A stretch of 61,441 bases of DNA, the filler included, from Dugesia japonica (lineage: Eukaryota): the NCBI GenBank assembly GCA_001938525.1. It is 5 parts of 5 records of this genome, joined end to end, with 100 filler letters (N's around TTAATTAATTAA, not from the genome) between each part and the next. Parts side by side here need not be neighbours in the genome. Positions count along the whole stretch, not along the records: positions 1 to 12,008 come from MQRL01644164.1; 4 more parts are not named here. One strand, 5' to 3'. The translations under genes and the position numbers were made by a program. The notes beneath the pieces were generated by a model. The model was not told the origin of the DNA. It worked only from the letters and a program-made list of their open reading frames with translations, and did not search any database. Shown piece by piece: positions 1 through 56,984 of the stretch; position 1 is the stretch's first letter; each line of letters begins with the position of its first letter.

Positions 1-99
1 GGTGCACGCCATAAGCCTTTCTATTCGGGTTCACTATTTTCCCTTAACTATCAGTGAAAACTTAAATCCGTGATATTTGAAACATTTATTGCAATACAT

Positions 100-482
100 T
101 TACAATTCATCGAGCACGCTAGGGTCTAACCATTGGTCCGGATTGGTGGTCAAAAAGTTGAACGCTCCGATGTCGTTGTCGTCGTTCCATTGTATCCCAG
201 CTGGGTTACCCATCTGGTGAGATAGGTCGGCGATGTACTGCTTCAAGAACTCTACTTTTCTCAGAGGCAATTTCTTGATTTCTGCTTCCAGGATTTTTGT
301 TTGGAGTGCCAAGTCGTTTTGTTTTCGAACTACCAGATCTAACTTTTTTATGAGTTTGTCTCGCTGGGCAAGATGCCTGAGGAGAACCTGCTTGGTTTTA
401 CGTTTTAAGTGGTGTTCTAGCAATAGATGGCGCATGATACGGTAACATCTACGCAAACTAGTCGGGAACATGATTTGAGGCT
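100..482 (-). CDS. Copy A cassette exon 4 (basic, coiled-coil-like, unknown function)
   Basis: Acceptor tttcttttag|AG CCT CAA ATC ATG; open frame to TAA at 100; AATAAA at 85-90; clearly homologous to 9455-9837 and 56472-56860. Confidence 0.75.
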
Positions 483-603
483 CTAAAAGAAAATTATAGT
501 TAAGTCGGTGGGCAGCAAATTCACAATTCGGAGAAACAACACAAAAGAAAAATTATGTAAATAAATAATTTATTAAAGTCAGTCAACAATGCAACGTGAT
601 AAC

Positions 604-963
604 TCAGGAGCGGTTAGTCTGAATACATTTTTCGATCAAAAGAGGGGTCAAAGGGGTAGCGGCCCTCAGCTTCATTATATTTTTCAATAGTTGGTTCTCA
701 CGCTCCTGGTAAGATTTGATGATTTCAGTAAAAGTTTCGACCTGTAATTTCCAAATCCGCTCTTGGTTCTGGGTAGCGTCGATCTCAGATTTAAAAGACA
801 GACATTTTCTGCTTGTAACGTTTAACCTTAGCTTCCGCTGCCGCAGTCTCCGCTTCCCACCACCTTTTGGCGAGTCGATACAAATCCCACGTGAGTTCTA
901 TGTCCTCAATGGTTTCACGTAGCTTTTTGTTCGGGGCCTGAGACCTATTCAGTGAGGAATGCA
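604..963 (-). pseudogene. Copy A cassette exon 3 (one frameshift)
   Basis: Acceptor tattttag|TG CAT TCC; translates HSSLNRSQAPNKKLRETIEDIELTWDLYRLAK...QTNRS*; AATAAA at 569-574. Confidence 0.8.
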
Positions 964-1299
964 CTAAAATACAAACACAGTAATGTAGGGTAGAATTTTA
1001 GCAGATTTATAATTTACAAATGAGGACAATCTGGTCTACCACATACAAAATAGCAAGGGGTGGAGTTTCTAACTTTNNNNNNNNNNNNNNNNNNNNNNNN
1101 NNNNNNNNNNNNNNNNNNNNNNNNNNATCCCAGGTGATCTCGTTACACTGAGTTACCACTCTTACTAATCCTGAGAACTACCAAACCCACTATTATCATC
1201 AAGATAGCAGAAGTTTATCTTATCGAATGTATAAAGGTATCGTATAAAACAACAATAAAGAAGACACCTATTTATTCATAGTTCAAAAGGAAACATGAG

Positions 1300-1655
1300 T
1301 TATTCGTTTTCATTATTCGTGTCGACACTGGGTGCCGTGTTTTCCGCATCAGTTACCCCAGTAGGCTCCCTAACTCCCCAGAGGAGATTGGATATAAAAG
1401 CCTGCACGGCTGGAGCTGGAGTGGGGCGGAAATCTGATATTGGAAAGCTGTTACAAGGGTTCGGTCAGGGCCCGTCCAGGTTTGGTACCGCTGACGTTCT
1501 CCAAAATCGCTGATACGGGTGACAATAGATTCAATTGGAGGCAAGTTGGACCTGTCGATCAAGATGCCCGCGTTTTAATTGTGGGGGTTGTGATGACGTC
1601 GAAATATTATTCTACGGGTTCGTCGATCGATTACTCGTTCCCAGATGGATTCCAT
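1300..1655 (-). pseudogene. Copy A cassette exon 2 (stop plus frameshift)
   Basis: Acceptor ttcttag|CT ATG; MESIWERVIDRRTRRIIFRRHHNPHN*...ENTAP; AATAAA at 1271-1276. Confidence 0.8.
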
Positions 1656-1791
1656 AGCTAAGAAAAATAGAANAAGTGCTAAAATTCAAATAGAATAATT
1701 TTAAAATGAAAAACAATTTAAATTAACAATTGAGAAACAAAGCAAGCTTTTATACAATTTATTTTATCGTATGGGAATTGACCAGCTAAGG

Positions 1792-1974
1792 TTACTCTTT
1801 ATCTAAATCTACTCCATCGTTCGAAGGGAACATTTCGACTAGACAACAAAGATCTGTCTCATCCGGGTGTTCTATTTTTCCTCGGGTCAATAGATGAGCT
1901 ATTAATTGTTTCGTCCGAATAATTTGCCGTTGCTTTCTAATCCACCGTAGGGTTTGATATAATTCTGCGGGCAT
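1792..1974 (-). CDS. Copy A cassette exon 1
   Basis: Acceptor ttctttag|C ATG; MPAELYQTLRWI...HPDETDLCCLVEMFP...VDLD; AATAAA at 1758-1763. Confidence 0.7.
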   Translation of the reverse strand: MPAELYQTLRWIRKQRQIIRTKQLIAHLLTRGKIEHPDETDLCCLVEMFPSNDGVDLDKE

Positions 1975-3361
1975 GCTAAAGAATGAAGTCATTAATCACC
2001 ACTTTCGACTTATGACTTAGTTCCCTAAAAATGAAAAGTAACCACTGACCCTTAATATGACCATGTGTTGTACGTCATTAAAAGATAATACTTAAGGGAA
2101 TGATATTAGTTTGGATTAGAATGATTTGGGCAAGGAAATGACAGTTTGCCAAACATTATCGACAAACTAACCATAATAAGTAGCACCGCAACAGCGAGCA
2201 ACAGAACCCGAATCATATGGGAGTTAATAATATAACGGAGGAAAAATATTCTCCATGGTGCTCAAAAACTAGAGAATAATAATTCCGACATCAGGAACGG
2301 CACCCAGGCGGTAAATAGTAATCATAATCTTAAACTCTATTCAATTGTAATAAGAGGGAGATGTTACTCTGGTTAAATCACCAATACCAACACTGATGGT
2401 ATAATTATATGATGATTGTCGCAAAATTAGTCCTGCAATAAGGCCATTACTAATAGTAATAAAATGATGATTCTAGTATTAAGAAAATCATGAATTATGA
2501 TAATTATAATAATTATAAAAATCTTTCTTTTTTAAACCTCCGCGCTTCACCGTTGCATGGTGATTTTCTCCCCTTGACAACCAATTAGATCGATCTGCAA
2601 CATGTCGGTGTGTAAAGAATTAATCTCGTGTAGGTGTGCGAGAACGGAGTTGAACAACAACACCCAGCCATCATTATGAGCACACAGTCTAACGGTATGA
2701 CTTTCGGGTTGGTGCACATGCAAAGCCTACTGTCAGTTACAATTTTAGGTGATGATTCACTGTCTTTAAGCAAAAATTATGAAATGCGATAGTTATTTCT
2801 ATTCTGTGACAAAAATTCGTGGCCCTTCCATATCAGTAGAATCCAGCCGATCAGAGTCAGGGATCATCACATTAGTGGATGCTTATCATCAAAATCTGTG
2901 GATTTATTATCATTTCGAAATAACTGAATTAATGTATTATTTTGTTAAATAAATTGTTGGAATTTTATCCTTCTACAATCACAATCTTGGCCAAATAAAA
3001 AAAAANNTTGTTATAAAATGATGCACATAGAAAGGAAAACTAGGATGTATTCGACTTTTGGTTTATATTTTTACAACGCAGGTAAGTATAAATTTGTTCA
3101 GATCTCAATTAACCGGATCTTATGATATTTATTTATTAATATTTTCTTTAATTTAATGACCGTTAAAAGGAATTTACCGTAAAATGTCATTTAAGAGTCT
3201 ACTATCATTCAAAGTCAACAGTAGTCTATTTACTACAGATTAATACGTTTAATTGACTAAATAATGAATTGAAATTTTAATATACATATTTTATTAGAAA
3301 TAAATAACATCAAAAATTTTTTGACCATGCAATTCTTTACATAATAAAATAAATATTTTAC

Positions 3362-3910
3362 TTAATATCAATTGGCGAATTTCTGCAATGGGTTTGATTC
3401 AAGATTAAAGTGTTTCTTTCCGCTTTCGAGTGACGAATTTTCAAATAGATTTGAAGTGAATTCTTTGGATTGATTTCCTTGTACGTTGGAGTGCAAATTT
3501 CTTCGTTCGAAGTCAACTAGTATAATGTTATTCTTTTTCTTGATAATTTTCCGATTTCAAATATGTGGTTTGGAATNNNNNNNNNNNNNNNNNNNNNNNN
3601 NNNNNNNNNNNNNNNNNNNNNNNNNNTGTTATTCTTTTTCTTGATAATTTTCCGATTTCAAATATGTGGTTTGGAATTCACAATTTGTTATCAAATTTTT
3701 ATGTAGTACGTTTTATTGTTTTTTAGTCAGTTGTCTTGCTAAATTCAGGGGTCCTTTTATAGAATTTTCTGCACANCCCAACTTCCTCCAGATTCGTTAG
3801 TTATTTTTAGATCAACATTTTCTGATTTTATTGGTTCCAGTACCAGTTTTCTAAAAATTTTTGGAATTTTGGAGTTGCTATTGGCGTCTATTTTTGGACT
3901 GACACATGAT
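3362..3910 (-). promoter_or_regulatory. Copy A promoter and AUG-free leader exon
   Basis: TATAAAAG at 3754-3761, CTAAAAATAA at 3801-3810, CCAAT and CATGTG upstream; donor TTAA|GTAAAA at 3362/3361. Confidence 0.7.
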
Positions 3911-5306
3911 AATAGTGTCTATGTTTTATTTTTATTTTTAGATTTCTTATTGGTCCGATCTTGAGGACCCTGCAGTGACCCTCTGGAAGGTGGTAAGTGT
4001 TTCTTCTTATTAATCTCAACTGCATCTTGATATTTTCTTTCTGTATTTTCTTACCCCGATTCTTTCTGATTTCCTTGANNNNNNNNNNNNNNNNNNNNNN
4101 NNNNNNNNNNNNNNNNNNNNNNNTTTTTTATTTAAAATTAATTAATATTTTTCTTCTGTTAATTAATTATTTTCATACCGATTTTCTTGGTTTTCATTAT
4201 TATTTAATAATTCTTCTTAATTCCCAATATTGATATATGCTAGTTTTATTTACCTGGTTCTCTGTATTCCTCTTGGATTTTATTTCATTCTATTTTGCTG
4301 TTGATTTCATGCATTGCCTTTTATGTTTCAATATTGATAATGGCCTTGCCGTTCTTTTCCGTTGGTTCGGCTTTTCTGCCTTTTTCCTTTTTAACGGGTG
4401 TTCCACCCCAACAATTTTAAAGATTGACGATTTTTAACCACGTTATTTTTCCTTAGCATTAAATTCTCTATCTAATAGTTACTTTGATGTTTAAATTTGA
4501 TTTAAGTTTTTTATTTTCATTAATANNNNNNNNNNNNNNNNNNNNNNNNNNNNNNNNNNNNNNNNNNNNNNNNNNNNNNNNNNNNNNNNNNNNNNNNNNN
4601 NNNNNNNNNNNNNNNNNNNNNNNNNNNNNNNNNNNNNNNNNNNNNNNNNNNNNNNNNNNNNNNNNNNNNNNNNNNNNNNNNNNNNNNNNNNNNNNNNNNN
4701 NNNNNNTTTCCAATAATTGTTTAGAAATTATTTTAATGAATCAATGCTAAATAAAAATTTTCTATTAAAAATTAAACATTAATTAAAAAATACATACGAA
4801 ATTTAATTTGATTTAAAAATATTTCGTAATTTCATCAATAATTAATAAACATTTTCTATTATAATTTTAATTTAACCATAAAAAATTATAAATTTAATCA
4901 TAAAAATATATAATTGAAATCTAACTTACTTTCAAAACACAATTAAACATTTACTTACAAAAGTATAGTTTTAATCAAATTACACATTTAAATTAATCAA
5001 TTCATCATACTTAATTTATTCAATCAATTATATTAGATATTTTCAATAAATAATTACAAATTTGTTTTCAAAAATTATTAATACTTAATAAAAAATTCCC
5101 ATTTTAAATTAAATTTTAATTAAATTTTTACGATAAAAATAAAACACAAATTAAAATATACATGATCTAATTTAATTTTCAAAATTACAAATAGAAAATA
5201 TAGAACAGGATTTAATTAAATACTAATTAAATAGTAAATTTACCATTAGTGATTAGTAAAGACCTGCAACGTTTAGGAAAAACATTGATAACTAAAAATC
5301 AAAGTA

Positions 5307-5378: not shown

Positions 5379-6011
5379 ACACAGAGCTTTGATAACTGAG
5401 GTCAGGTAAAGAGTAAAATTTCATTTAAATTCATCTAAGAAACTAACCAAAATTGACTAACCGAATAAATTATCATATTTTTATGTTCCTCGGGAACTCC
5501 TTAATTAAGTACTTGTTTTTCAATATAACTTTTATCTATAAGATTTGATGGTTTTAGGTTAATTTATTTGCAATCAGTGTAGAATTCTCTATCAAATAGA
5601 CAGGTTTTTAATTAAATTTGAGATACTTTNNNNNTTTTTAATTAATTATTGAGAAATAAAAACATTTAACTTTGTTCAAAGTAATTTGATTTGACAAATT
5701 TCTACCGTGTATATTTTTGATCAGTAAAAAATATTTAATAGTACTTGGATCATTAAATTTGGATGAAAATTATAAAAAATAAATTTTTACTTGTGTCGAT
5801 TAAGCGTAATTCGGATTTTTGACTACGTTTTTACGAATTTTCTTTGTAAAAAATAAGTTTGATGATTTTAGGAGATGTTGTTCGTGATCAGTAAAAAATT
5901 TGGGTAATCAAAAAACCAAAGCTCTAACATCATTCGGAGAACTTCGGCAGAGATTCGAAGCTTGAGCCAAAGACGAACCTGAAATTATAATTAAAACAAA
6001 GACACAATCGT

Positions 6012-6535
6012 CATGTGTCACTCTAAAAATAACAACCAATTACGGCACCAAAACTCGAAGAAAAGTTTAGAGAATTGGCACCGGAACCAAAATCGAAAAG
6101 CCACTCTAAAAATAACTGACAAATCTGAAAGAAGTTGGGGTGTGAAAGAAATCCTATAAAAGAACCCCTGATTTTAGCAAAAAAATATATACAAAACCAA
6201 CTACAAATTTTGCATATTCACATACGAAAAAACTCTGTGAAAACTTATTTGTGGACTTTACAAATCAACGGATTGTCAAGGAAATTAACTGTTACAATAC
6301 TAATATTCGGAAGAAACTTATTAATTGGTTAACGCGCATCAATCGTATCGAAACCTATCTGTGAATTAGAGTAAATTAAATTTCTATTTGCGTTGCGGAT
6401 AATTTTCTTTCTTTTAAGAAAAAGGAAAATAAAGGAATACCTGATCCAGGAATCAAATCCGGAAATTGCCAACTCAATACTAATTATTTACAAAAGAAAA
6501 CCCGTTGCAGAGATCCTTTAGTTTAACAGCACGAA
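6012..6535 (+). promoter_or_regulatory. Copy B promoter and AUG-free leader exon
   Basis: CATGTG 6012, CTAAAAATAA 6023 and 6106, CCAAT 6036, TATAAAAG 6155-6162; no ATG in 6181-6535; donor CGAA|GTAAAA at 6535/6536. Confidence 0.75.
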
Positions 6536-7429
6536 GTAAAATATTATTTTGATTATGTTAAAATGATATTATATGAAAAGTGGAAATATTATTTATTGTA
6601 ATAAATTCATATATGCAAAGAATCTTAGGTTATTAATTTTTCCCCGTAAATATATTAATTACGGTTGATAAGTGATTGACAAAGTTTGAATGAAAAATAA
6701 ATCTTTAAATAAAAATGTTTTAGACCTATTCGTTATTAAATGCAAAAAAAGGAAAAAATGGAAATAATTCCTCATCCCTCATTAAATTGAATAAGTTATT
6801 AACCAATAAAAATAACATAACTAAGCTATACTCTATTTGAATAAAATTACAAATATCAGTGCCTAAAATGAAAGTTGAATCAGTTTATTTTTTGTTGTGC
6901 CAATAAATTTAGGGAACAGCCAGACCAAAATGTTCATCTGCATTGCTATGATTTAAAGAAGGAACAACACTGTAATTACCACCGTTTATTTAGCAAAAAT
7001 AATAACTTACCTCCATTAGTTTAAAACGTAAATAATCCTAGAAATGTCCGTAATGAAAAAATCAATGAATATGCCTAACATTTTTTTGTATCAGCTAAAT
7101 TCAACCGGCAGCGAATTTGATACTCTAACCCAGTGATTAACTATCTAGTTCCGTAAATTTTCCAAAAACACCGAGCTATATCATTTAAATCGCGAGCTGC
7201 AGTTAGCAGGTTGATCTAAATTCATATTATTAGGTGGTGTGTATAGTCGCTGAAAATTAAAAAACATAGCATGGATTTAATGCTTGATGCTCAGTTTGGT
7301 TTCTAGCCAAACACACCTACAACAGGATGATATGCCCACACACCAGCCTAATAAAATTCGTCATAGTATATTCCTAAGCAACACAATGCGCATGAAATCA
7401 AATTACATAAATTCAGAAAGAAATTAATT

Positions 7430-7960
7430 TTTATTATAATTAATATGATTGTTATTTTTATTAATTTTATTACTATCAATACTAAGACTATTAATATTAC
7501 CGATATTATCCTTATGGTTGGGAGTACTAATTTTATGGTTATGGTTGACGAAATTAACAGTATTAATACTACTTTAATTGCCGGTAAACTTAGAATTAAT
7601 TCAACTATTATTTTTACTATCTTTAACAGTACTATCATTAGTATGAACATCGCTCTGATTACTGTTAAAATCATTATCAATATGGTTGTTATGAACATTA
7701 CTATTGGCCATATGGGTAGTTTCATCGTTGAAATTATGATCAGTAATATTATTACCATTATCATTAACATGCTCAAGGTGATGTTTATTCCGGGTAGGAT
7801 CAAAAATACTACGTTTAGCCCTACTATCTTTATGATGAGCGTTATAAATGTTATTAAGATTCTAATATTGACCAATGGGTCTNAATTAAAATTATTCAGT
7901 AAACTAGTATCGTGGTAGTGGAACGAGTCCTCCTATTAATAATAGTCGGCAATAGTAATG
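7430..7960. repeat. Degenerate ATT/AAT-periodic low-complexity block inside the element
   Basis: 3-nt periodicity gives Ile-rich ORFs on both strands; similar blocks at about 2040-2520, 58390-58860 and 60654-60850. Confidence 0.7.
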
Positions 7961-8026
7961 AAATTTTTTTTTGTAGGAGTTTGAACCACGAGTTATGATT
8001 TAACATTTGTTCTCTTTATTTAGTTC

Positions 8027-8221
8027 ATGACACCCGAATTGCGTCGTACTCTCCAATGGATAAAACGACGATGTCAAACTGCTCGATTAAGACAGTTTAT
8101 CGCCCATCTATTAACTAAGCGAAGAATTGAACACCGGGATGAGACAGATCTTTGCTGTTTCGCGGAGATGTTCCCCTCAGTGACTCCAGTAGATTTAGAT
8201 GCGGAGAGTACGCCTTTCTAA
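8027..8221 (+). CDS. Copy B cassette exon 1 (64 aa)
   Basis: Acceptor tatttag|TTC ATG; AATAAA 8260-8265; homologous to 1792-1974 and 60898-61092. Confidence 0.75.
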   Translation: MTPELRRTLQWIKRRCQTARLRQFIAHLLTKRRIEHRDETDLCCFAEMFPSVTPVDLDAESTPF

Positions 8222-8370
8222 GCAGGAGTGTAATCTGCGAATTACTGTTAATTGTCTAAAATAAACTGATGATTTGATTAAATCTATTTGTTGTTTATTT
8301 CTGTTACCTTTAATTAATTTAAAATGAAATTATATATTATAATTTAAACAAAATTTCGGTTATTTATAGA

Positions 8371-8724
8371 ATGGAATCTATATGGGAAATGGTAGTGGAT
8401 AGAAGAACTCGTCGAATAATCTTCCGAGGACATCACAACCCCCACAATCGGGACGCGGGAATTTTGGCCGACAGATCTAATTTGCCTCCTGTAGAGTCCA
8501 TCGTCGAGCCCATAAGAGACTTTGATGAGCGTCAGCGGTACCAAGCCTGGACAGGCCCTCATCGCACCCTTGCGACATCCTTTCATTATCAGCCTTCCAC
8601 TCTAATTCCAGCTCCCGCTGTACAGGCCTTTATCACTAACCTACTCTAGGGAATAAGAGAACCCTCGGGTAGCGAAGACTCGGAAAATACCGCACCCGTG
8701 CCGGATTTACCAACTCCTCCTTAG
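8371..8724 (+). pseudogene. Copy B cassette exon 2 (Arg-rich N-terminus; TGG>TAG at 8647)
   Basis: Acceptor tttatag|A ATG; homology to A and D continues past the internal TAG (GIREPSGSEDSENTAP); AATAAA 8746-8751. Confidence 0.8.
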
Positions 8725-8969
8725 TGATTTATATGTGTGACGTATAATAAAATAATCTGGTTGTCCTGGTCTAAAATATATGTTCGATGTTTTGTATAAT
8801 TCTTAAGAGATTTTTCGTTTGTTTCTCATTTTCAGATTGTTTTCTAGGTTTTCAAGTCGATTTGGGTGATCTAGAACTTGGTAATCAGATTTGTAACTAC
8901 TGTGTCTGTGAAGAAACATAAAGTTATGAGAGCTATTTTCGATAATATGTATATGTTTTTTCTTTCTAG

Positions 8970-9328
8970 TGCATTCCTCGTTCAACCGTCCTTCAGCCCC
9001 TACTAAGAAAATCCGAGATACCAGTGAGGACCTCGAATTCACTTGGAATTTATATCGGTTAGCCAAACGCCGATGGGAAACTGAAGTAGCCGCGGCCAAC
9101 AGTAAGCTCCTACGCTATAAGAAAAAATGCGTCCTCTTTAAAAAAAAAGCAGAAGCCTCCCATTCCCAGGATCGCATTTGGAAAAGACAAGTAGGGTCTT
9201 TCTCGGAGATGATCCGGTCCAGCCATGACCGAGAAAATAAACTGGTTAGCGATATTTTACTTCTCCAGGAGAAAATCCCTCTCGAGCCGTTGATGATAGA
9301 GAGGGGCACTCAGACCCCTCGAAGCTAG
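8970..9328 (+). CDS. Copy B cassette exon 3 (coiled-coil-like, frame intact)
   Basis: Acceptor tttctag|TG CAT TCC; the ORF-track GTG start borrows the G of the AG; AATAAA 9355-9360. Confidence 0.8.
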
Positions 9329-9454
9329 TCATATAGCAATATTGTTTCTTTGTTAATAAACTTATTGTTAAACTTTTGGCTTCCGTTATTGTCTTAATGT
9401 TCTCTTGAGTTTTGTGGTCGAACGCTTGTATATTTAACTTATTTTATTTTTCAG

Positions 9455-9837
9455 TGCCTCACATCCACTTTCCCAATAACCTCCGTAGGTGTCACCGCGT
9501 CATGCACCGCCTGTTGGTTGAACGACACTTAAAACAAAACACCGATAAATCATTGATTAAATACCTGAATCAAAAAGATCGATTAATTAAAAAGTTGGAC
9601 CAAATCGTGAGAAAACAAAATGACCTTGTGGTGCCAATAAAAGCTTTATAAGAAGAAAATAAACTATTGTTACAGCGGAAAATCGATTTCCTCAAGCAGT
9701 ATATATCTGACTTGTCCCGACAGCTAGGAGACACTACCTGGGCCCAATGGGACGATAATGACGATGTCGCTGCTTTTAGTGTCTTGGGAACGGATCCGGC
9801 TCGGTGGTTAGACCCCGGAGCTTTGGATCTAATGTAA
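9455..9837 (+). pseudogene. Copy B cassette exon 4 (internal TAA at 9649)
   Basis: Acceptor tttttcag|TG CCT CAC; homology continues to WLDPGALDLM*; AATAAA 9847-9852. Confidence 0.8.
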
Positions 9838-9909
9838 ATGTAATGAAATAAAAAATGTATAGTCCACGTTGTAGTTCCTCAAATATGTTTGTAATAACAG
9901 GGAAAGTAA

Positions 9910-10082
9910 TGAACCCGAATACAAAGGTTTGTGGGTGCGCACCTCCCATTAAGCAAGGGGTCAACCACCACAAACTGAAAATCTGCCTTGGGGCGGTAGA
10001 TCAAATTCTTAAAAGGGTTCCCCTGAGGGCTGTTTTTCCCTAGCCACCTTTTTCTTCGTTCAATTCAGGTGGGACCCCAACA
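9910..10082 (+). other. Conserved structured terminal block of the element (U5-like)
   Basis: Conserved in B, D, E and partly A; several helices with compensatory changes. Confidence 0.65.
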
Positions 10083-10299: not shown

Positions 10300-10690
10300 T
10301 CCCAAACTGACCAACCCCGAGGAAATAATTCACCAATAACGACCAAAAATTAGCTAAACTGACCAGTTCCGAGGAAAATTTCAGTCAAATCGCTCAAAAA
10401 TGAACCAAATTAACCATTCTCGAGTTAAATAATTGATCAAACGCACAAAGATTACCTAAAACCGACCAAGTTTGCCCAAATTGTCCACTCACGAGGAAAT
10501 AATTGACCAAATCATCCAAAAGTGAACCAAATTAACCATTCCCGAGGAAATATTCGACTAAATTCCCCTGAACTAACCAAAATTTGACCTTATTCGAACT
10601 CATTGAGGAAACTTTGGACAAAAACCACCTAAAATTACCAATCCCGAGGAAATATTCGGCCAATTTCACCTTAACCAATTAAAACTTGAT
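10300..10690. repeat. Degenerate ~55-bp tandem array (ACCA..CCCGAGGAAA..TTGACCAAA core)
   Basis: CGAGGAAA-like core recurs about 7 times at roughly regular spacing. Confidence 0.7.
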
Positions 10691-11319
10691 TGATTAAAAA
10701 GCCTATAAGATTTTCCCAACTAAATACACAGGAAAAATTAAACGCCAGTTAATCCAATTACGTAAAATTTCACCGATAAAATTAATCTCATGACATAATT
10801 TGTGTGCAAAAAATTTTCCTAACTAAATACACANGGAAACAGTAACACTAAATTAAGTAATATTACCTAATGATACAATTTATGATGTAATTTTTAAATT
10901 CCCAACTATATGCAATAGGATTAAATTTCATTACGTCATGGCGGGGGGGCTTCGCACACATGTGGTGTTAATTCCCATTATCCCTCTACTTGGAGAAAAT
11001 AATTAAAATAATTATGCGCATATTTGTTTGAATATTAAAGCTTTTCAAAGTAAATTTTTTCAATTCTGACAAACATTGTTCCAAATAAATGATTGGTAAT
11101 GAGGATGTTTTTCTGGTTAATAGACAAGAAAGCTATTATTAAACTACTTCATTGTCTTCTAGGTTTGACTCACACAAAAAATAGAATAGCTTATAAAAGA
11201 CTGGATTGATCTCACCTTCAACTAAGCAGTTATATAATGGCGCTATCACATCTGAAAACTGGCAGTTCGTTCACAGAGCCAAATCAAGTAACCTTCCAGT
11301 AGGGAGCAATTATTGAATG

Positions 11320-12008: not shown

Positions 12009-12274
12009 NNNNNNNNNNNNNNNNNNNNNNNNNNNNNNNNNNNNNNNNNNNNTTAATTAATTAANNNNNNNNNNNNNNNNNNNNNNNNNNNNNNNNNNNN
12101 NNNNNNNNTTGCCAACATTTAATCATAGCAAAGTATTATTTTTTACATAAGCATAATAATGACAAAAATACAGAAACATTTCGGTGAATCACTGCACATT
12201 TGAAAAGTGTTTTATAGTAACAATTAGATAAGAAGTATGTTCACACAAGCTCCTCGGATAATAATGAAGATTTG

Positions 12275-14340: not shown

Positions 14341-15140
14341 TAGGGTGTCCCATAAGTCTTTTCGTATTTTTATTCAATAAATACATGCTTAATAAAAGAA
14401 GAACAAATAAATATTGTCTCAAAATAAAGACCATTTGAATTAATGGTTTGAATCTATCTATTGTCAAGTTGCTGGATCCCGCAATCATACCAGTCTTTGT
14501 CTTTGGAGCAAAATTTTTGGCACACCTTTTGTACCTCATCCAAATTATTGAAACATCGTCCTTGCAGAAAATGTGCCATAGACTGGAAAGGATGATAGTC
14601 TGATGGTGCGAGATCTTGGTTGTAAGCTGGATGTGGTAAAATTTCAAAGGCATCCACCTCCTTTATTTTTTCCATTGTTTACCTGGCAGTGTGCGGTTTG
14701 GCGTTATCTTGCTGTTGAAGTATTCCATTTCGGTTTACCAATGCTGGATATTTTTGCTTTAATTTTGTGTCCATCCTGTCCAGTTGAGAGCAGTAGAGGA
14801 CTGCGTCAATGGCCACATGGTTTTCAAGAAGTTCGAAGTGGATCACACCTTCGAAATTCCACCAAACGCACAATAATAGTTTTTTAGAGAACCGATCTAT
14901 CTTTGTCACCTGATTTGGCAGTTGTCTGGGGTCAAGCCATTGATTATGTCTATTAGGGTTATCTAAGTAGACCCATCTTTCATCCGAAGTCACAATCCGG
15001 CGTATAAAANNNNNNNNNNNNNNNNNNNNNNNNNNNNNNNNNNNNNNNNNNNNNNNNNNNNNNNNNNNNNNNNNNGTCAATTCGTGTGGAATTTGTCGAC
15101 AGCATCTTTTCACCTTGCCCATTGAACGAAGATGTCTAAA
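14341..15140 (-). mobile_element. Mariner (DD34D) transposase remnant with one TIR
   Basis: IVTSDERW, LCVWW, QDNAKPH and HPAYNQDLAPSDY motifs; TIR-like TTAGGGTGTCCCATAAG near 14341. Confidence 0.9.
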
Positions 15141-16179
15141 ATATTTATTTTGCTTGAACAAGTTATTATTATCGAGAACTAAATCCAATTCGATAAAATT
15201 ATATTATAATAAAAAGTGCTAATTACACACTAATCGCATTAAATATGGGGAATATAAGTGAGAAATATATTATATAATTAACAATGTTCATACGGGTCGC
15301 ATCAATCTCAACATACATAACGGGTCACATCAATAGCAACATACATACGGGTTAAATCAATATTTGTTTATCATAATATATCTTACTCACACAAGTAAAA
15401 TCATTAAAATGTTCTTTTTTATTTGAAATATATTATTAAATTAAATCAGAATCGCCTAACAAATTTAATAACAGTAANNNNNNNNNNNNNNNNNNNNNNN
15501 NNNNNNNNNNNNNNNNNNNNNNNNNNNNNNNNNNNNNNNNNNNNNNNNNNNNNNNNNNNNNNNNNNNNNNNNNNNNNNNNNNNNNNNNNNNCAGCCAAAA
15601 ACTAGAAAAGGTACATTTCCGACATTAGATGCTTTTAGAATTTCACAAGGGTAGTAACACAATAGTTGTTACCAAAAACATTTGCGATGTTTATTCAATT
15701 GCATTAGACGTTTTTTAATGCCAAATGTGGATTTCTAAGTTTAGGTCAGGTAATTTGGATCTTTTCAACTTGTGTTGATCAGGAAGACCAACAACATTAG
15801 ACAGTAACGTGTTAAGGGCTGAAGTGGAAGCAAATTCGTGTTAGGCGATCGAAAAACTGTCAAACACTCCTAACCAAAGCTTGGTCGACCATTCAAGAAC
15901 ATTTGCTGTAGTAGGTGTTTGAGTCCCACATAATCTCTTAAAAGAAAATAAAGGTAACCGTCCACCACATGCAACTATTTGTTTCAATGGTACAATGCAG
16001 AAGCGTTTTTGATCGATTTATCACTAAAGACGAAAAAAGGGATCCTCAATGATAATCAACAATTCGAATGAATCGGCAAAATGTACTGTTAAGCCAGGTT
16101 TACATTCAAAAAAGCGCTTTAGTGTGTTTGGTGGAGTATTTGTGAAATTGTTTTTTTTGAACTTCTGAAACCTGAACAA

Positions 16180-20776: not shown

Positions 20777-22169
20777 GTAAGATTTTTTTATGAAAATGTT
20801 TTTTTTAAATTTTTGGAAATTTCAGAAAAATTTAATTTAAAAAAGTTTTGAATTATTAATTAAATTAATCAAGAGAGAAAAAAAATCCTAACTTTTAAAC
20901 TTTTAAAATCAAATTTATTTGTTTTTTTATAATATTTATTCACTATTTATTGATGTAATTTTAGGAAATTTTAAAGATGTTAAACACTAATTAAATAGGA
21001 AATACTTTATTTATATTTAAATCTTCAAAATTAATTTAATAACTTGTGGCTGGCTTAAATCGATTCTACATTTCTTATGATTTATAAATTTTATTTTCAA
21101 AAGCTAACGTCTAATAATTTCGATAATTCTTAAATCGCTGTCAATCCTATAAACAAATTACGATAGCATTAACCTATCTAACAACCAATTTCTTTGCAAC
21201 GGGTTTTTATCTGTAATTTCGTGCCTTAGAGAGTTGTTTCTTATAATTATATTAAAAATAATTATAATAATTTATTATAAATTATAAAATGAATTCAGTT
21301 CTATAATTTTCTTGAAATTATTTCGAGTTAATTAATTTTACCAATTTATAAAATATTAGGAAAATTTAACTTTCTTATATAACGTTCTTAGATTAATTAT
21401 TATTTTCTTGGTTTTCAAATTAACTCTACTGAATAAACAAAGAAAATAAATATAATTTTATTCTTGCTAGTCAGAAAAATTATCTTTAAATTAAAATATC
21501 ATATTATATAGATAAACCATTTCGATTCAAGTTAATTTAATTATGTTCATTACCAGATTCATATNNNNNNNNNNNNNNNNNNNNNNNNNNNNNNNNNNNN
21601 NNNNNNNNTTAATTAATTAANNNNNNNNNNNNNNNNNNNNNNNNNNNNNNNNNNNNNNNNNNNNCACTAATAGTACTGCATTCATTCTGTACATAGTCAT
21701 TTAATATGCTTAATTTGTCTACATTTTGTCAATTTTCACCAATTTCCCACTATTTACCCTATTTTTAGTGATTATCTATCGTTTACCCATATTTAACAAT
21801 ATTTAGATATATTATTCATCAATTGCGCCTATTTTATCATCTTTGCTACTATTTCCAATTCGGTTCAATCTTTAAAGACTGATATATAGGGATAAAAGGG
21901 GCTATTTAGTGAGTAAGATCTGGTATGGTTTGCTTCTTATTTACGATAATATAATCAATTCAGTATATTTATATTTATAGTTATATAAAAATTTATATAT
22001 TTTTTTGTAAATATATAAATATATAAATATAAAGAACTAAATAACATGATAAATAATAATTAAATACCTCTTATTTTTCAACTGAACAGGATTTGTTTTA
22101 ATCAATTTTTGAGAAGAGGTATTGTTTTATTTTAAAGTGTCCCTCCGTAATTTGTTCAGCTGTAGTGTA

Positions 22170-23595
22170 GATTGACCAATGTAACTGGAGCGATCTAATG
22201 ATACTGACTCTTTATTCATTAAAGCCGCTATCAAGTCCTCATTAATCTTGATAGATTTCCGGAAGCTAGGTTTTGATGCATATGTTACCAACTTCTTACT
22301 TGTAATACATATTCACAAATCTACCATGTTCTTCAATTTCTCAACCAATTTTCCATACAAACTGTTGTTTAAAAATTTGTAATACGCTTTCTCAAGATTG
22401 GTATTACATTTTGCTCTAAATGCAATATTGGTTACAATATAATTTTAAAAGATGCGATCTTGAGTAAATCTTACCGCTTTAAGAACCACATTAACTTCAA
22501 TTTTTAATCTCATGTACATTTGTAGCAGTTTTCAATACAGTGCATAATATTCCTTAATGTAATGAGTCCACATTAATATTTTTACTTTACTACCTGGAAG
22601 GCATTAATGTTTTGCTGCTACTGGTAGATCCTTTATAAAGTCATGGATTTCTGAAGGGATAACTATGTTTACCTCCATAGTGTATCCGAACGATAACGCA
22701 ACCAGATCCATCGTCTTATATTCTTGTAATACTGATTCTAAACTAGTATGTACCCAGTCAAAGTCTCAATATAGTAATTTTTGACAAAGAGCCCACACAT
22801 ATAGATTGTTAATATCTATATATAAAAAATATGTGTTTTCACTAGTAGTGACATGATGTTTGTTGATAAATATCAACTCACTCTTATTTTACCTTAAAAA
22901 ATAGTAAACATGTCGTTGTCCTTCAACAGTTCTACTGATTCCTTTAATAACATCAAAGCTAATGCCCCACTGATACCCAGTAATACAAAAATATTCAATG
23001 GCTCTTATTTGTTGTGTTATAAAGATTTCAATCTAAACTGTTTGAAGAAATTCTCCAATAAATACACATCCAATTTAAAATAAACCAACATATAATCCAA
23101 AAGGTTCTTAAAATCAGATATTCTCATTTCTTTGGTATATTCTCCCTATGTGATCTCATTCCATCTTGGTGGCATTTGTGTTGTTTCAACTTAAGAATGT
23201 AAACTATATGAATAATTGTATAGAAACTTCCCCTTTGACATTGTAATTATTCTATCTTTAAATTTCTATAATGTCAAAGATGTCTCTTTTAAGTACTTTA
23301 CGGCAGAATCTGGTGAGGAGTTTAAAAACTGATATGAATCTATAAACTTAATTACTGGTAATTAAGTCTCATGCACTATTAAGCATAGCAACCTTTCCGT
23401 TGTTGTTGAAATGCAATTCAGGCTCCACTGTGAACATTTATTTAATTCAAATTTCAAAATATGATGAAAATCATACCCTATTAAATTGTGAAATACCACT
23501 GGTAGTTGCATTTTCACACTTCTGCTCCAATTACATATAGAATATGCTGCGCCCAAATACTAATCAGTAAAGTGATTATAATCTCTAACTGGTGC
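22170..23595 (-). pseudogene. Polinton/Maverick protein-primed PolB fragment
   Basis: PVVFHNLIGYDFH (ExoII), YIDINNLY and FLNNSLYGK motifs; many lesions. Confidence 0.85.
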
Positions 23596-27129: not shown

Positions 27130-30050
27130 ATTACAATAAATAATGACCGTATGGTAAGCTTAAATTTTTCTCTGTCCATACTCACTTATCATCCTTATTA
27201 GATCGAGCTACTTTTTTACTTTTGATACTGTAGAGCTGATGATCCTTTGATGTTATTCGAAAATGCTCTACTGAAACCATTCATTATTATTATAACAATC
27301 AAGGTACGACTGATGAGAAATGTTAGTACCTTTTAATGTTATGCCTTTAGCTTTTATTGATTCTTTCTCACTAAGTAGACTATAACACTTCGGTCTCAAA
27401 AATATCCATTCTTGATATTTCTTTCTTTTACTATCATCCTTGAATTTTCCAATTACTGAATTTGTACTATTTCTGTAAAAGGGATGACTTGTGCTGTGAT
27501 TGGATGTCTCCAATAGCTAATCCTTCATCATTAATCCGGTTAGTTTTTCTAAACTTATGTCTACCACTTCTAAGAAAAAACTATCCGTATCGCCGGCTAC
27601 TATATTTATCTTACAATTCTCTTCCTGTCTGTACTTTTCCAATTCAATGTACTGTAATTTGTACATTCTTAACTTACTTAAGTCAAGTACAGTTTGTCTA
27701 ATGTAGCTCGGTCGATCCAAACAAACCATGTCTTTATTCATCAAAACAGCTATAAAATCATCATCAATTTTAGTTGTTTTTTTGAATCGAGCTTTTGATA
27801 TATATTTAATCAATTTATGAGCTGAATTACACAAGCGCAGATTCATTCTCTTCTTTAAGTTCTTAACTGTTTTACCATACAGGCTATTATTTAAAAATTT
27901 ATAACAATTCTTCTCCAAATCTGATTTTACACTCTTAATTTAGTGTTAACATCTATATATCGTTTGAAATTAGATGCCTGACTGAACTTTACTCCTCTAT
28001 ATACCTTTGTTATTTGTACACCCAATTGCAAATAAATTTGGAGTAATCTCCAATGTAAAACATAATTTTCTTTCGGGTAATGAGTCAGCATTAATCTTTT
28101 CACATTACTACCTGGAGCACTTTGATGTTCTGCTGCAAAAGGTAAATCCTTCAGTTTATCCTTGATTTCTGCTGATATAACCATATCTACTTCTAATGTG
28201 TATCCATGGTAACGATTCGAGATCTCCTATTCTACATTCTTCCAATACTGAATGCAATCCAGTATATACCCACTCAAAATCGGCATAGGACAATTTCTGA
28301 CTTAATTTCCGTCTATATGGATTATTAATATATATATATATACAATAAATCTGTGTTTTCATTACTAACAACATGCTGTTTATTTACAAATGTTAGCCCT
28401 CCTCGTATACCCCCTTCAAAAAAAGTATACATAATTATCAGTCAAAAGTTCAATTGGTTCATTTAATGACATCAACGCAGATGCCCGACTCATACCCGCG
28501 ATGCCAAATAATGTTAATGGCACCAAATTATTATGTTAATGTTAACAAAAACACATCTTTTTTCAAAAATACCATCATATAATCCAAAAGATTGTTGCAT
28601 CATGTTATAGTCCACATTTCCACTACTTTTCCAGAACTTGCAAACTGGTTGCATAATTATAAGGAAATTTTCCCATTGACATTGTAATTCTGCTGTCTTT
28701 AAATTCATTTGTTGTCAAAAGTGTCTTTTTTAAGGATTTGACTGCTAAGTCCAATGAAGAGTTTATAAATTATTACGAGTCAATAAATCTGATTGTAATG
28801 AGGCAAAGGAATTTTTGAGATGTTGTTGGTATACAAGATAGGGTTCAATGTGTAAATTTATTTAATTAGTACTTTAATATGTTGTGAAGGTCATATCCTC
28901 TCAAATTATGGAATACTACTGGTAATTGATAATTGATTCTTCTGCTTAAATTGCATTTATTACAGAACGCTCCTATATACTTGCCTGTAAAATGGTAATA
29001 ATTCCAAACTGAATTACTTTAAGCTTTTTACACAAATGACATATTGAACTATTTTTAAATTCCATTTCTTCATCCGAGTTCTTTATAAGTTTCTTTTTTC
29101 TTCTTTAATATAATATGGATATACTATATCATTACCGATTTCCTCCACTGCCATTAGGAATTCATGTACACATTCATTTCCAATAAACTGACTGTATTTC
29201 ACTTCGTTGGTAAAATTATTTACCAACAACAGCCCAGCTGAAACAGGTAAATGTTTCTGGAAATGCTTTTCATCATTTGGTAATACTGATTCAAAATCAG
29301 CATATATAACAAAGGATGGAGTTATAGTTTTGGAGTAATCTTGAAACTCCAGATCCGTTTCTGTTGGCATCCTATATAATGTGGTGCCTGTCTGAACTTT
29401 CTCGCAAATTGGTTCATGAGTCTTATAAACCGTATTAACCTTGAATCCGTTGAAAAAATTTACACACCAGATTGATTGAATTCAAACACCACCCTTTTTA
29501 ATATCTCTGTTCATCAATCTATTCAAATTCATTACGGCAGTGTAATGAAATTTGTTGGCATCTTCCTATAACAATAAATTAATTTTTCTCCATCACATTT
29601 AGACCGATGTATAATGTCTAAATTCTGATGCTTCATGATAACATCATCATTGTCCTCTACTGATTGAGGGTTCCCTGAGAAAACATTAATTGATAATCTC
29701 TGATTTTGCTTTTCAAATTTTGGTATATGAACAATCTTTATTGGCATGTCACCTTCATCAAATACAAGATCGGATATAAAGTCTTTATATTTTGCAGCTG
29801 GATATCTATGAAAATTGGTCCAATCATCTTCAATTAACTGAGATCACATCTTTATTTCTTTATCTGTGATAACATCTTCTTTTCTTTGCTTCGATAGTGG
29901 GCCATCTATCTCTTTATCTAATACCATCCTCAGTAATTGTTTTTTATTTGTTGTAAACTGCTTTAAGTGGTCTGCATGCAACCTATAAAAGTCTAAATAT
30001 TCACCTATTCCTATAGACCTACATGATGGACATATGTAATACTTTTCTTC
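27130..30050 (-). pseudogene. Protein-primed DNA polymerase B
   Basis: YADFES, FHNLRGYD, KFLNNSLYGK, GDTDS, GKFKD, LRPKCY motifs; frameshifted. Confidence 0.92.
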
Positions 30051-30729
30051 ATAAAAAATTGTGAATAGTATCTCTCCATAGTACTATGGCAGTCGCCTTT
30101 ATGAGTCTGATTTGCACAATAATGTTTGTAGAATGTACAACATTCTGGAAAAAATAAGTTGTATTACGTTTATTAAATTATTAAAAGTTCATTTAAAAAT
30201 TAACATAAAATAAATTATAAAATAAAAACTTACTTTTATCATAAATAGGAGCATCAATAACAACCATCAACTGTTGACAATAATTTTACTTTAATAAAAC
30301 TCTTCCTCTTAATACCTCTTCCACCTTGATTTTAATTATTATAAATCTAAAATAAAATTAATAATCATTAAATAATAAAATTAAATTCACATTATCCATC
30401 ATTAAACTTGTTGAATTCATATTTTTATTATCGTTTATATTGTTCATAAACTGAAAGCGTATAATAAATAATAATAAAACTAATGCAAATACTTTACCTT
30501 TTCTTCGCTCAACAATGTTCTCAATATGCTTTTATTATTATTGTTTATAACCTGAAAATTATATATATATATTTATAAATTAAAGAAATATAAAAAATAA
30601 CAAACTTACGTATCAAAATTATCGCTTTAAACAACAGTTTTTTGAAAATTATGAAGAATTTTAAAACGTAACTACTTTTAAAATGTCAAATTAATTTTTC
30701 ATTTGCATTTGTATGCATGTATTTTAATT

Positions 30730-31627: not shown

Positions 31628-31840
31628 NNNNNNNNNNNNNNNNNNNNNNNNNNNNNNNNNNNNNNNNNNNNTTAATTAATTAANNNNNNNNNNNNNNNNN
31701 NNNNNNNNNNNNNNNNNNNNNNNNNNNAAGCTTTTATATTAAATGAATAATATGTAATATTAATTAATATTTCATTAAATTCAAATTTATTATGAATATT
31801 TTGTATTTATTTATTAGTTTGGATTTTTTACTTTTAATAG

Positions 31841-34099: not shown

Positions 34100-35040
34100 C
34101 TACGGGTTGCAAGTAGCCGGTTCTATTACGAAGGCCAGGATAAGGGCACCGGACCTTATTCTTTGGGGCGTTCTACCAGGTTTATTATGAAAACCCTAAT
34201 CAGATATAAACGAAAGCTTGGTTAACCTAGCTAAAACACCAACATTCAAAAACTTCTTGTATCCATATCGGTTGTAATTTTTTAACAGTGAGAGCTATTC
34301 AAGTATTTGCGTTTACTCTTAGAATAAATTGATCCTGTAAAATACTTTTATATGATCTCCCCAATTATCTTGTATTCCGAAAGCTTTCTTGGCTAATGGA
34401 TTTAATTCAAAGACAAATTCACGAACGGATTCTCCGAAATTATGAGTTATTTTATAAAATTTCGTGCGCATTACACAACTGACATCACCAATTAAAAGTT
34501 TGGCTGCCATTGCATTTTTACAATGAATCCGTGTATTCAATTTTGTGTCTCTATTTAACTGACAATAAGCATCTCGAGCTGCACTTTTCAAATGTAATGG
34601 TAGCCTCAATACCATAATTCGTTCTGATCGTCCATAAGCCTTAGAGTACATGAAATAATCTCTCATAAAATTAATGAAACTGATAGAATCACCTCCATAT
34701 GGTGATACTGGTAGTTTTTGACAATTAGCTACATCATTATTTAGAATATTTTTGGTACTCATATCGATTTTATTTTCTACTTTTACAATTTTATTTCTCA
34801 AGTTATATTGCCGTTTCTCGACAATCTGTTTTTGTTTGCCTTTGAGCACTGAAAAGTTAATAAATTACCACAAATATAAATTATGCCTGCCACTAAGCTA
34901 AAGTAATACCGATGCTTTGCAAATAATATGCAACACAAACCCTCAATTTTTCATAACTAATAGCATATCCAATATACAATATGGCCTTCAAACCATAATA
35001 AAATATTTTTTCGGCTCACTAACAAATGTTGGGGTTTCCG
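34100..35040 (-). mobile_element. Gypsy LTR end, PBS-like sequence and gag remnant
   Basis: Minus strand CCCCAACA (35027), then TAGTGAGCCG (TGGCGAGCC-like), then gag-like ORF (LPLHLKSAAR..Y, GESVREF). Confidence 0.6.
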
Positions 35041-36879
35041 ACTAAAATGTTCGTTTATATAACTGACTCCTTGATTTCGGATGAAGGTCCGAAGTTCATG
35101 TTCTCAATTAAAAACAACGTTTACACATTATCAAGTAATTTAAAATAAATCTTTTTTTACAAAAATTTAAAAATTTTAACCACTGATCAGTGAAAATTAC
35201 TGAAAAAATGATTTTATTTAAAATAAAATGTTTTAAAAGCAAAAGATCAGAATTGCTGTTCTTCTTTTTTTACCATTTTTTCAATATTTCGGCTATGCCT
35301 TCTTCCGTAAATTCTGATTATAAACTTTGAAATAACAATTAAAATTAAATTCATTTGATTAAATTTAATTTCTATTGGATATTATTTATAATTTTGAATT
35401 CATTGAAAATAGCCACGGTTAATTGTTTGCCAAGATTAAAATAAATTTTTTTTTACAAAANTTTAAAAATTTTAACCATTGATCTGTGAAAATAACTGAA
35501 TAAACAGTGACAAGCTAATTGCGCTGACTTTGATTTCTCTGCTAAAAAAGATGCCAGCGATAGTGAGTCCATTGAGGATAATTAAATTCAAAGTGTTCCC
35601 TTTCCTCAGTTGGTTCTTCGCACCATTTCTACTTAGTGTCTATTTTTGTTGTTTTTCTACAGCATTCTTCTAGCCAAACCAAGATCTAAAGTCTTGAGGA
35701 GGATTTTTCGGCTTAAGAGACAGTCTTCGTTTATCTTGGTGCAGTTTGCGTGTTGTTCCCACATTATGCTCAATGTCAATAACGAATTATGCAATAGATA
35801 AGTTTGTAGGTACTAAATTTTATTTTAATTGCTTCATTGCTATTTAATAATTATGTATGTAATCAGAATTTTTTAATAATACTGTATAATATAAATTTCA
35901 AGCATAATGGATTTATTATTTCTTAACTATTAATAATTATAATAAATTTTAACTTTTGCAATGATTTTAGTTTACAACAGTATTATAAAAGCTGTTGTCA
36001 ATGATATTGTAGACATTTATTGTAGACAATTATTGTAGACAAGAATTTAATTTCTGAAATATGGTATTGAAATGAAGATGGTGGTGATATTAATGATGAA
36101 TAAGTCCTGAATCGTAATTTAGTAAACCTAATGCTAGCAGCAAATAAAGATGGGCCTCAGTTCTATTAATTGAATAAATTTTAAATATTTTTCGGAAATT
36201 ATTTTCCTTTTTATTGATTTATTCCTCAAATAATTGTTTTTCTCCAACATATTAATTTATTTCTTGATTATTAACCAAATAATGCTGCTCTTTTTTAATC
36301 ATTCTCTTTTTTCTTGATATTATTGCTGTCTTGCTATTTTACTAAAGAAATGTTTTCTTAATTTTTTTTAATCCAGAGACGTGGCTACTTTCTTCTTCTA
36401 GCTATGTATAGTTTCGTTGACTTTGTTTTGCAATATTCTTTTCCAGTTTCTGTTATAATTAATGATCCTCTACGTTACTATGTTTTTGTTATTAGATAAT
36501 TTCGGATATTGTTTTTATCGAATTATGTTTCTATCTGGTTTTGGGCTTAGATATCTATTTTATAAGATTAGCTCAATCCTTACTGTTTCGTATGCTTCAG
36601 GTATAATTTTTGAATTTTATGATTATAAATCAGACATTCTCTTTAATTGCATTAAATTTATCTTGATCCATCATCAAATAAATTCAGATAACTTTTAATC
36701 AGAATGGTAAGTCATAATTTTTAATTTGAATTATTTTTAGTTACAACATCTTCATTCATTTTCATAATCGAATAATAATAATCAAATACTAAGAATATTT
36801 ATTTAATTAAATATTCGCTTGTTATATTTATTATTTAAACAAATCCTTTTTTAAATTTTCATAATTCTTTCCTTCTTCA

Positions 36880-43442: not shown

Positions 43443-44130
43443 GTGTTCACGTTGATTTATACAATGAATTGGAATAAACTGCAGAATAATGGCAGACCAA
43501 CTATTGTTTCACCCCAAGCTTCACGAGCTATAAAACGCATTTGCAAAGTCAATCGCTTATTATCTGTTCATTATATCACCCATGCGTACAATACAAAAGC
43601 TGTCCAAAATGTTTCTGTTAGTACTGTTCAGAAAATTCTGAACACGCACGGTTTTCGAAGTTATTCAGCAATTAAGAAGCCATATTTGAAATTGCATCAA
43701 CGTCTCAGAAGACTTTCCTGGGCCATGACTTACAGTAGTTGGGATGCAGATAAATGGGGAGATGTTGTATTCGGCGACGAGTGTATCTTTCAGTCATATT
43801 CGTCATCAAGTAAATTATTGAAGAACCTCAGTGGAAAATTACAATCCTACCTTTATCCAAGCAGTTAAGCGACATGGTCCATACATACATGTCTGGGGTG
43901 GCTTCAACAGTAATGGAGTTGGACTTCTGAAAAGAATCAATGAAAATATGAATGCCGAGAAATATCGAAAAGAGATACTTCATGATATAGACATAGTTGG
44001 TAAATGCTTAGTCTTTCCAAAAGCAGCATTAGTTTTTCAACATGACTTGGCTCCACCACATGAAGCCAAAAGTACCCATGCTTTCCTAAAAAATAAAAAT
44101 ATGGATGTCTTACCCTGCCAGGTAATTCTA
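43443..44130 (+). mobile_element. Tc1-family transposase remnant
   Basis: GRP, KKPYL, VVFGDE, VWG, FQHDLAPPH motifs; frameshifted and 3'-truncated. Confidence 0.9.
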
Positions 44131-56860: not shown

Positions 56861-56984
56861 CTAAAAGAAAATCATAATCAAGTAGTGAACACCAAATTTA
56901 TAATTCGGAGAAAATAAGTAACAGGAAAACTTTATGCAAGTGAATCATTTATTAAAAACAAAAGAAATAATGCAATATCATAGT

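Follow-up and report, generated by a model that had tools for sequence, protein, structure and literature searches.

A covarying sense-strand RNA structure closing a 4.4-kb repeat, probably a solo LTR, in Dugesia japonica

A 61,441-nucleotide stretch of Dugesia japonica DNA (NCBI GenBank assembly GCA_001938525.1; the whole stretch is referred to here as the window) carries six copies or pieces of one repeated element, designated A–F, and the right end of this element can be drawn as the same set of helices in copies B, D and E. Are these helices those of an RNA that selection has maintained, what kind of element do they belong to, and what would such an RNA do for it? An initial annotation had described the interval 9910–10082 of copy B as a covarying RNA structure with a possible pseudoknot. 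The conserved block actually begins at 9900; it is described below together with its host element and the readings of its function.

Helices 1, 2 and 3, and the CCTGAG-type helix that encloses helix 3, are all present in copies B, D and E as the initial annotation had listed them (Table 1). Helix 1 stands as listed and is extended by a 9-bp lower stem that had been missed; the enclosing helix likewise continues into an overlooked 7-bp terminal stem, and the two together make a 13-bp terminal helix that stops 5 nt short of the element's right end. Contigs vary freely in the linker that joins helix 3 to the closing strand, as expected of an unpaired stretch. Other unpaired stretches of the block, 10003–10014 in copy B for instance, are invariant.

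Table 1. Positions in the window of the element copies, the structured block and its helices, and the signals and reading frames of the element
Feature	Position	Strand	Remarks
Copy A	1–4413	−	Block truncated (positions 1–43) by window edge; left end at 4413
Copy B	5903–10082	+	First ~370 nt unrecognisable
Copy D	56233–60653	−	Both ends, 4421 bp; 9-bp terminal inverted repeat; ATAA on both flanks
TATA-like motif	6155–6162	+	Kept in B, D and A; ~630 nt from left end in D
LTR ORF1 (copy B)	8027–8221	+	64 aa; AATAAA at 8260
LTR ORF2 (copy B)	8371–8649	+	Shorter in B than in D; AATAAA at 8746
LTR ORF3 exon (copy B)	8970–9328	+	After acceptor-like AG; AATAAA at 9355
LTR ORF4 exon (copy B)	9455–9837	+	After acceptor-like AG; stop-interrupted in B
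Last AATAAA (copy B)	9847–9852	+	Followed by GT-rich stretch; 47 nt upstream of block
Structured block, copy B	9900–10082	+	Predicted U5 RNA domain
Structured block, copy D	56233–56416	−	Full relative
Structured block, copy E	61226–61407	−	Full relative
Purine 7-mer at 5' end of block	9900–9906	+	Predicted long-range pseudoknot with helix-3 loop 10034–10040; 6 of 7 pairs invariant, 1 one-sided
Invariant 6-mer	9911–9916	+	Complementary to 10015–10020; alternative partner of 5' strand of terminal stem; invariant, so no covariation
Helix 1 (copy B)	9926–9976	+	9-bp lower and 5-bp upper stem; 3 two-sided and 2 one-sided changes, 1 broken cell
Helix 1 upper stem (copy B)	9941–9945/9957–9961	+	
Helix 2 (copy B)	9982–10000	+	6 bp, 9982–9987/9995–10000; G-rich loop 9988–9994; 3 of 6 pairs two-sided
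3' domain (copy B)	10015–10077	+	13-bp terminal plus enclosing helix, helix 3, variable linker
Terminal stem (copy B)	10015–10021/10071–10077	+	7 bp; continues enclosing helix (RNAalifold)
Enclosing helix (copy B)	10022–10027/10064–10069	+	
Helix 3 (copy B)	10028–10032/10041–10045	+	Within 3' domain
Variable linker (copy B)	10046–10063	+	Helix 3 to closing strand; letters vary among contigs
Right end of copy B	10074–10082	+	Short inverted repeat, final CA; fits SIR pattern in the available text of PMC3601003

Covariation was tested on the three full copies (B, D and E) with a 38-pair nested structure derived from these same sequences. Over 38 pairs in three copies, 113 of the 114 cells are paired, with seven pairs changing on both sides and six on one side. 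None of 500 shuffles matched the paired share, the two-sided count or the covariation score, 32 of 500 matched the count of further pair types, and sliding the partners by 1–3 columns lowered the pairing to 28–52%. A second null, 1000 column shuffles that preserved gap pattern and conservation class, gave consensus energies of −23.7 ± 3.8 kcal/mol against the −54.2 kcal/mol of the real alignment, which none of the 1000 equalled. The conservation index was 0.55 in these shuffles and 1.00 in the alignment; the one-sided pair count, taken alone, was ordinary (384 of 1000). In a stricter null the invariant stem cores were held fixed and only the 21 variable paired columns were re-dealt (six settings, 20,000 runs). 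The re-dealt columns had on average 7–13 broken cells as against the one observed, reached seven two-sided pairs in at most 2 of 20,000 runs, and came down to one broken cell or fewer in at most 6 of 20,000.

The strand, too, is indicated by the alignment. The variable pairs with wobble comprise seven G·U and no A·C on the sense strand (p = 0.008), bearing out the earlier remark that G–U pairs favour this strand, and the covariation term is −4.09 for the sense strand versus −0.10 for the antisense strand. Folded as single sequences, B and D are ordinary (z of 0.02 and −0.64) and E is unusual (−2.53). The helices are real, with three kinds of null beaten among three full copies, and the evidence supports a conserved sense-strand RNA structure 3' of the last poly(A) signal.

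For tertiary contacts, all stems of at least 5 bp that the three copies can each form were enumerated, 31 in number. The pseudoknot of the initial annotation, in which the helix-2 loop pairs with 10017–10021, can form in all three copies but without two-sided change, four of its five pairs being invariant and one changing on one side. As a duplex it is worth −3.7 to −4.2 kcal/mol versus −8.2 to −11.3 kcal/mol for the terminal stem, and since both use the same bases, the two are mutually exclusive; we regard this pseudoknot as weakly supported. A better candidate is the predicted 7-bp pairing of 9900–9906 with the helix-3 loop, which reaches −7.2 kcal/mol in all three copies and joins two strands that are unpaired in, and thus compatible with, the core fold, although B, D and E display no two-sided covariation in it. 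It would leave 1–2 loop bases to bridge the new helix, as is usual in pseudoknot geometry.

The 5' strand of the terminal stem, 10015–10021, has three conserved, mutually exclusive partners, of which the 9911–9916 segment pairs with 10015–10020 at probabilities of 0.07, 0.38 and 0.00 in B, D and E, respectively. These partners may constitute a switch, or may be a mere by-product of short G-rich and C-rich runs. A dimerisation signal of the palindromic kissing-loop type is not supported: no loop is self-complementary in all three copies, and the self-duplex energy of the three loops lies between −2.3 and none and is not conserved, while pairing between different loops would still be allowed.

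Given the terminal position of the block, the ends and signals of its host element bear directly on its identity. TG...CA ends with a short inverted repeat are found on both sides of copy D (9 bp), with which the left ends of A and F and the right ends of B and E agree, and D carries a matching base variant in both of its terminal repeats. The ATAA on the two flanks of D forms a 4-bp flanking repeat, seen in this one copy and expected by chance at a rate of ~1–1.5%. A promoter-like TATA, AATAAA and a GT-rich stretch follow in LTR order as motifs, and in B, D and A a distance of 40–47 nt separates the last AATAAA from the start of the block, so that its placement 3' of this signal (9847 in copy B), as first described, is correct. 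The SIR end pattern, AATAAA, GT-rich stretch and TATA are features of animal Metaviridae LTRs in the available text of PMC3601003, and the repeat shares all of them; it differs in its 4.4-kb length, its four protein-coding ORFs, each with its own AATAAA, and the 180-nt covarying domain in its presumed U5. From these sequence features, the 4.4-kb repeat is likely a solo LTR of a Ty3/gypsy-type retrotransposon, in which the block, placed after the final poly(A) signal and running to the right end, would be U5 by position.

No primer site, polypurine tract, gag or paired LTR adjoins any copy end within the window, neither primer site nor gag follows any of the three right ends, and the loose contig ends listed include no gag-pol, primer site or polypurine tract. 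Such absence is expected for solo LTRs, yet it leaves the LTR reading unproven, and the free-standing state of every copy in the window, where no internal region was found, together with the paired base variant of D, would also suit a non-autonomous DNA element or a small integrated virus, with the block as a 3'-terminal RNA or ssDNA replication signal. We judge this very unlikely: at just 9 bp the terminal repeat matches the SIR pattern of LTRs, the element's frames among the 80 scanned gave no Pfam match to a transposase or replicase, and the G·U bias points to RNA.

Several features of the copies can be recorded here. Between 55666 and 61441 the insertions are nested: F (+ strand, left end at 55666) is interrupted first by D and then by E, and where it picks up again at 60654 the sequence corresponds to a much more internal part of the other copies, so that F has either a deletion or a different layout. 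The TATA motif is flanked by a G run and a C run (6137–6168 in B, 60009–60040 in D), and no convincing covarying fold was found in the TATA region. A low-complexity region (7367–7918 in B, 58500–58900 in D, 60654–60900 in F) has open frames on both strands, the sense frame rich in Ile/Thr/Asn and that of the other strand in Asn/His/Asp, without Pfam matches. Directly after the right flank of B, an array of degenerate ~51-bp repeats occupies 10300–10700.

The four ORFs inside the LTR-like repeat span 8027–9852 in B, 56457–58146 in D and 85–1977 in A. The start codons of ORF1 and ORF2 lie just past an AG, and the ORF3 and ORF4 exons both open with TG in the same phase, suggesting a shared upstream exon. 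Each ORF has an AATAAA behind it, at corresponding positions in B, D and A; it is the matching position and not the presence of the motif that counts, as AATAAA is common (15 in B). In 21 pairwise comparisons of the four ORFs (two of them repeated), synonymous sites were saturated in 14 and dN/dS was 0.06–0.21 in the other seven, where dS was 0.9–2.9. By these substitution patterns, the four ORFs are under purifying selection, and the saturation of synonymous sites implies that the copies are old, separate lineages. The ORFs have no Pfam family above cut-off, no match in three word-indexed searches and no usable Atlas lead. A profile search with them returned four rows, of which only P0001, an unnamed distant homologue of ORF2 with 39% identity, is credible; ORF2 had no locus among viral contigs.

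Against this background of old divergence, the block stands out in its conservation. Identity between B and D is 81% over the last 190 nt, which hold the block, versus 39–69% in the other 22 bins. In run X1, contig depth summed at 80% likeness, which is not a copy number, was 13,670–291,465 on the four block bins versus 18–5,226 on the other 26, the highest non-block value (5,226) falling on the bin with the TATA motif; the block is therefore the part most shared among copies. The data show that strong selection maintains a sense-strand RNA fold in the segment that leads from the last poly(A) signal to the right end.

Transcripts were sparse. Three RNA runs yielded 24, 163 and 47 reads. All match only in part, none at 99% likeness; over the block they reach a depth of up to 12, in both mate orientations, and none falls on ORF2–4 of copy D. 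At 61302, 65 reads of run X15 and 12 of run X18 diverge from the reference, implying transcription from other copies whose helix-2 region differs. No RNA start, end or splice joint is listed in the three runs, and the run search listed no RNA run on record that contains the sequence. These reads fit low, passive transcription of scattered copies and are uninformative on function.

Could the block belong to a known RNA family? The Rfam search (Rfam 15) that had been proposed at the outset gave no relevant match: nothing in the window reached a gathering score, and E-value searches with the three copies gave 10 weak rows, all far below gathering score and none common to the copies, with no retroviral family among them. 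A covariance model built from the three copies recovered only B, D, E and the truncated A in the window, and, with filters off over 12000–56100, its best of 49 rows had an E-value of 0.55. Two DNA patterns found no locus in viral contigs, and the metagenome loci L001 and L002 are one and the same bacterial-looking chance match. A suspected likeness of 10003–10021 to a group I intron junction found no backing in Rfam and was abandoned. The block lies outside every Rfam family and works like a retroelement leader or U5 signal.

The compact fold, the possible pseudoknot and invariant unpaired stretches such as 10003–10014 would also be in keeping with a self-cleaving or capping ribozyme. This we hold to be extremely improbable, since no Rfam ribozyme was matched, no hammerhead core precedes helix 2 (the sole CUGANGA match, in copy E, lies in the 3' domain), a comparison by eye with the HDV topology fails, and cleavage at the block would cut the genomic RNA.

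The initial annotation had offered two functions, a packaging or dimerisation signal and an IRES for a downstream gag. As an IRES or other translation element, the block would deliver ribosomes to gag past a leader of ~3.5–3.7 kb with four ORFs, through which scanning is implausible if the genomic RNA starts at the conserved TATA (~nt 630). The size, multi-domain fold and conserved G-rich loop are IRES-like, and this loop may resemble HCV IIId. Some errantiviruses are said to carry IRESs in the available text of PMC3383448. No Rfam IRES family was matched by any of the three copies at E-values up to 5, however, and the ATG content of the block is not kept (1, 3 and 0 in the three copies). A primer site would also intervene between the block and the start of gag, whereas a type 6 IRES lies immediately before the first codon (PMC13273307), and the acceptor-like sites in the element mean that splicing could also deliver gag. 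The fold stops at the element's end and no ORF follows in the window, so that no pseudoknot precedes a first codon as it would in a type 4 or type 6 IRES. With neither gag nor primer site after the three right ends, an IRES for a downstream gag is possible but rather unlikely.

Of the two functions first offered, the packaging-type role is the best reading, and dimerisation of the palindromic kissing-loop type is unsupported, given the missing self-complementary loop. We propose, at about an even level of confidence, that the block is a signal that selects full-length RNA for packaging and sets up tRNA-primed reverse transcription, in a host that is likely a solo LTR of a Ty3/gypsy-type element; this function is inferred from position and precedent. 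The position after the last AATAAA supports the earlier suggestion that the block would occur only in read-through RNA. Short accessory mRNAs, terminated at the poly(A) signals of the LTR, would lack the block, and only RNA reading through into the internal region would carry it, directly before the primer-binding site; a place after the poly(A) signals and before the primer site would suit a signal that tells genomic RNA from the short products and controls the start of the minus strand. The compact domain, which the predicted 7-bp pairing between 9900–9906 and the helix-3 loop would close, would be the target to which Gag binds. Reverse transcriptase would meet the terminal stem as its first obstacle, and the opening of this stem would free 10015–10021 for alternative partners. 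Covariation, strand bias, conservation of the block, contig depth, the LTR-like ends, the compatible 7-bp pairing and the Ty1 precedent speak for this reading. Speaking against it are the missing primer site, polypurine tract, gag and paired LTRs, the tertiary pairings without two-sided change, the flanking repeat seen in one copy, the location of the Ty1 packaging region in gag together with the unaffected packaging of Ty1 pseudoknot point mutants, and RNA reads that are few and in both orientations.

The same position invites a second reading, in which the block acts in RNA processing or export by silencing the poly(A) site that precedes it in the 5' LTR, or by licensing nuclear export of unspliced RNA. 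Retroviral poly(A) hairpins and export elements act on poly(A) suppression and nuclear export, the genomic RNA must here get past as many as four signals with its introns retained, and the block starts shortly past the last AATAAA. We nonetheless consider it decidedly unlikely, as the conserved helices begin only past the AATAAA and the GT-rich stretch, and the structure would also stand in the 3' LTR, where cleavage is required. An elaboration of the packaging and priming proposal combines it with internal initiation, as a two-state U5 RNA switch in a four-gene, alternatively polyadenylated LTR: a pseudoknotted state would recruit ribosomes internally for gag, a terminal-stem state would serve packaging and priming, and 10015–10021 would swap among its three conserved partners. 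This elaboration we think unlikely.

Structured leaders are well mapped for retroviruses and Ty1, and both offer precedents. In HIV-1 and RSV, stems lie just upstream of the primer site, and a G-rich or C-rich strand has several alternative partners; the block is similar in having stems just upstream of a presumed primer site and one strand with several alternative partners, and dissimilar in its lack of a self-complementary dimerisation loop and of any Rfam retroviral match. In Ty1 of Saccharomyces, nt 1–7 pair with 264–270 next to the primer site, and compensatory mutants restore retrotransposition (PMC3592414, available portion). According to the available text of PMC3592414 and PMC8396678, this 5' pseudoknot affects reverse transcription; it is a preferred Gag site, yet point mutations in it left packaging unaffected, and the packaging region lies in gag (PMC8396678). 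The block resembles the Ty1 pseudoknot as an LTR-retrotransposon RNA structure next to a primer site, here a presumed one, with a 7-bp stem between a purine-rich 5' strand and a downstream pyrimidine-rich strand and with a proposed part in Gag binding and reverse transcription. The likeness is one of description and not of sequence: Ty1 is copia-type and its pseudoknot runs from R to gag (nt 1–325) around the primer site, whereas here the whole domain lies inside the LTR.

The best lead for the identity of the element, by analogy, is the planarian Burro/GYPSM1 group. Burro LTRs are ~5 kb long. As described in the available portions of PMC6431247 and PMC11410931, these are giant gypsy-like elements that carry accessory ORFs and number thousands of copies in a genome of >70% A+T; the total length exceeds 30 kb, of which up to 25 kb is internal and encodes a single Gag-Env-Pol polyprotein, leaving LTRs of several kb. 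Accessory ORFs and a >70% A+T setting are shared by the present element, the window being AT-rich (70.7% A+T), eukaryote-like and populated by gaps and many transposon remains. LTR-borne genes and an LTR RNA structure set it apart from Burro/GYPSM1 as far as the available text of these two sources goes, the comparison being by description only. One of the three BURRO1 oligonucleotides in the available supplement of PMC8532177 was searched and had no match in the window, which decides nothing. In the literature searched, neither such a domain in the LTR of a giant animal gypsy-type element nor a four-gene LTR is described; the Burro LTR may be treated in the original Burro paper or in the supplements of PMC6431247, which lay outside the search.

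The block is small, strongly constrained and directly open to probing and reporters, and, being conserved far above the rest of the LTR, it could serve as a marker linking diverged families of the element. An LTR with four selected orphan ORFs, each with a poly(A) signal, is unusual and poses the question of how full-length RNA is made, chosen and translated.

The remainder of the window holds other transposon-like sequence, interrupted by 100-base spacers with a six-frame stop insert at 12009–12108, 21565–21664, 31628–31727 and 52037–52136, across which the sequence is not contiguous. A separate, decayed Ty3/gypsy element lies at 47079–51003 (− strand), with LTRs of ~100 bp that are 93% alike, a primer-site-like start with TGG, reverse transcriptase, RNase H, integrase and a purine tract; its pol (47972–49645) belongs with these short LTRs and is unrelated to the 4.4-kb element. 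At 35027–35046 (− strand), an end resembling the right end of the element is followed by a gag-like ORF at 34322–34864 (weak PNMA match, E 0.065); the motif at 35027 is not a copy of the block, and no structured block stands before it. Two decayed stretches on the − strand, 22169–23591 and 27520–30083, are 66% alike, have a weak DNA polymerase B match (E 0.008) and are presumably Polinton-like, and remains of Tc1/mariner transposases (PF01359, PF01498) occur at 14682–15203 and 43443–43865.
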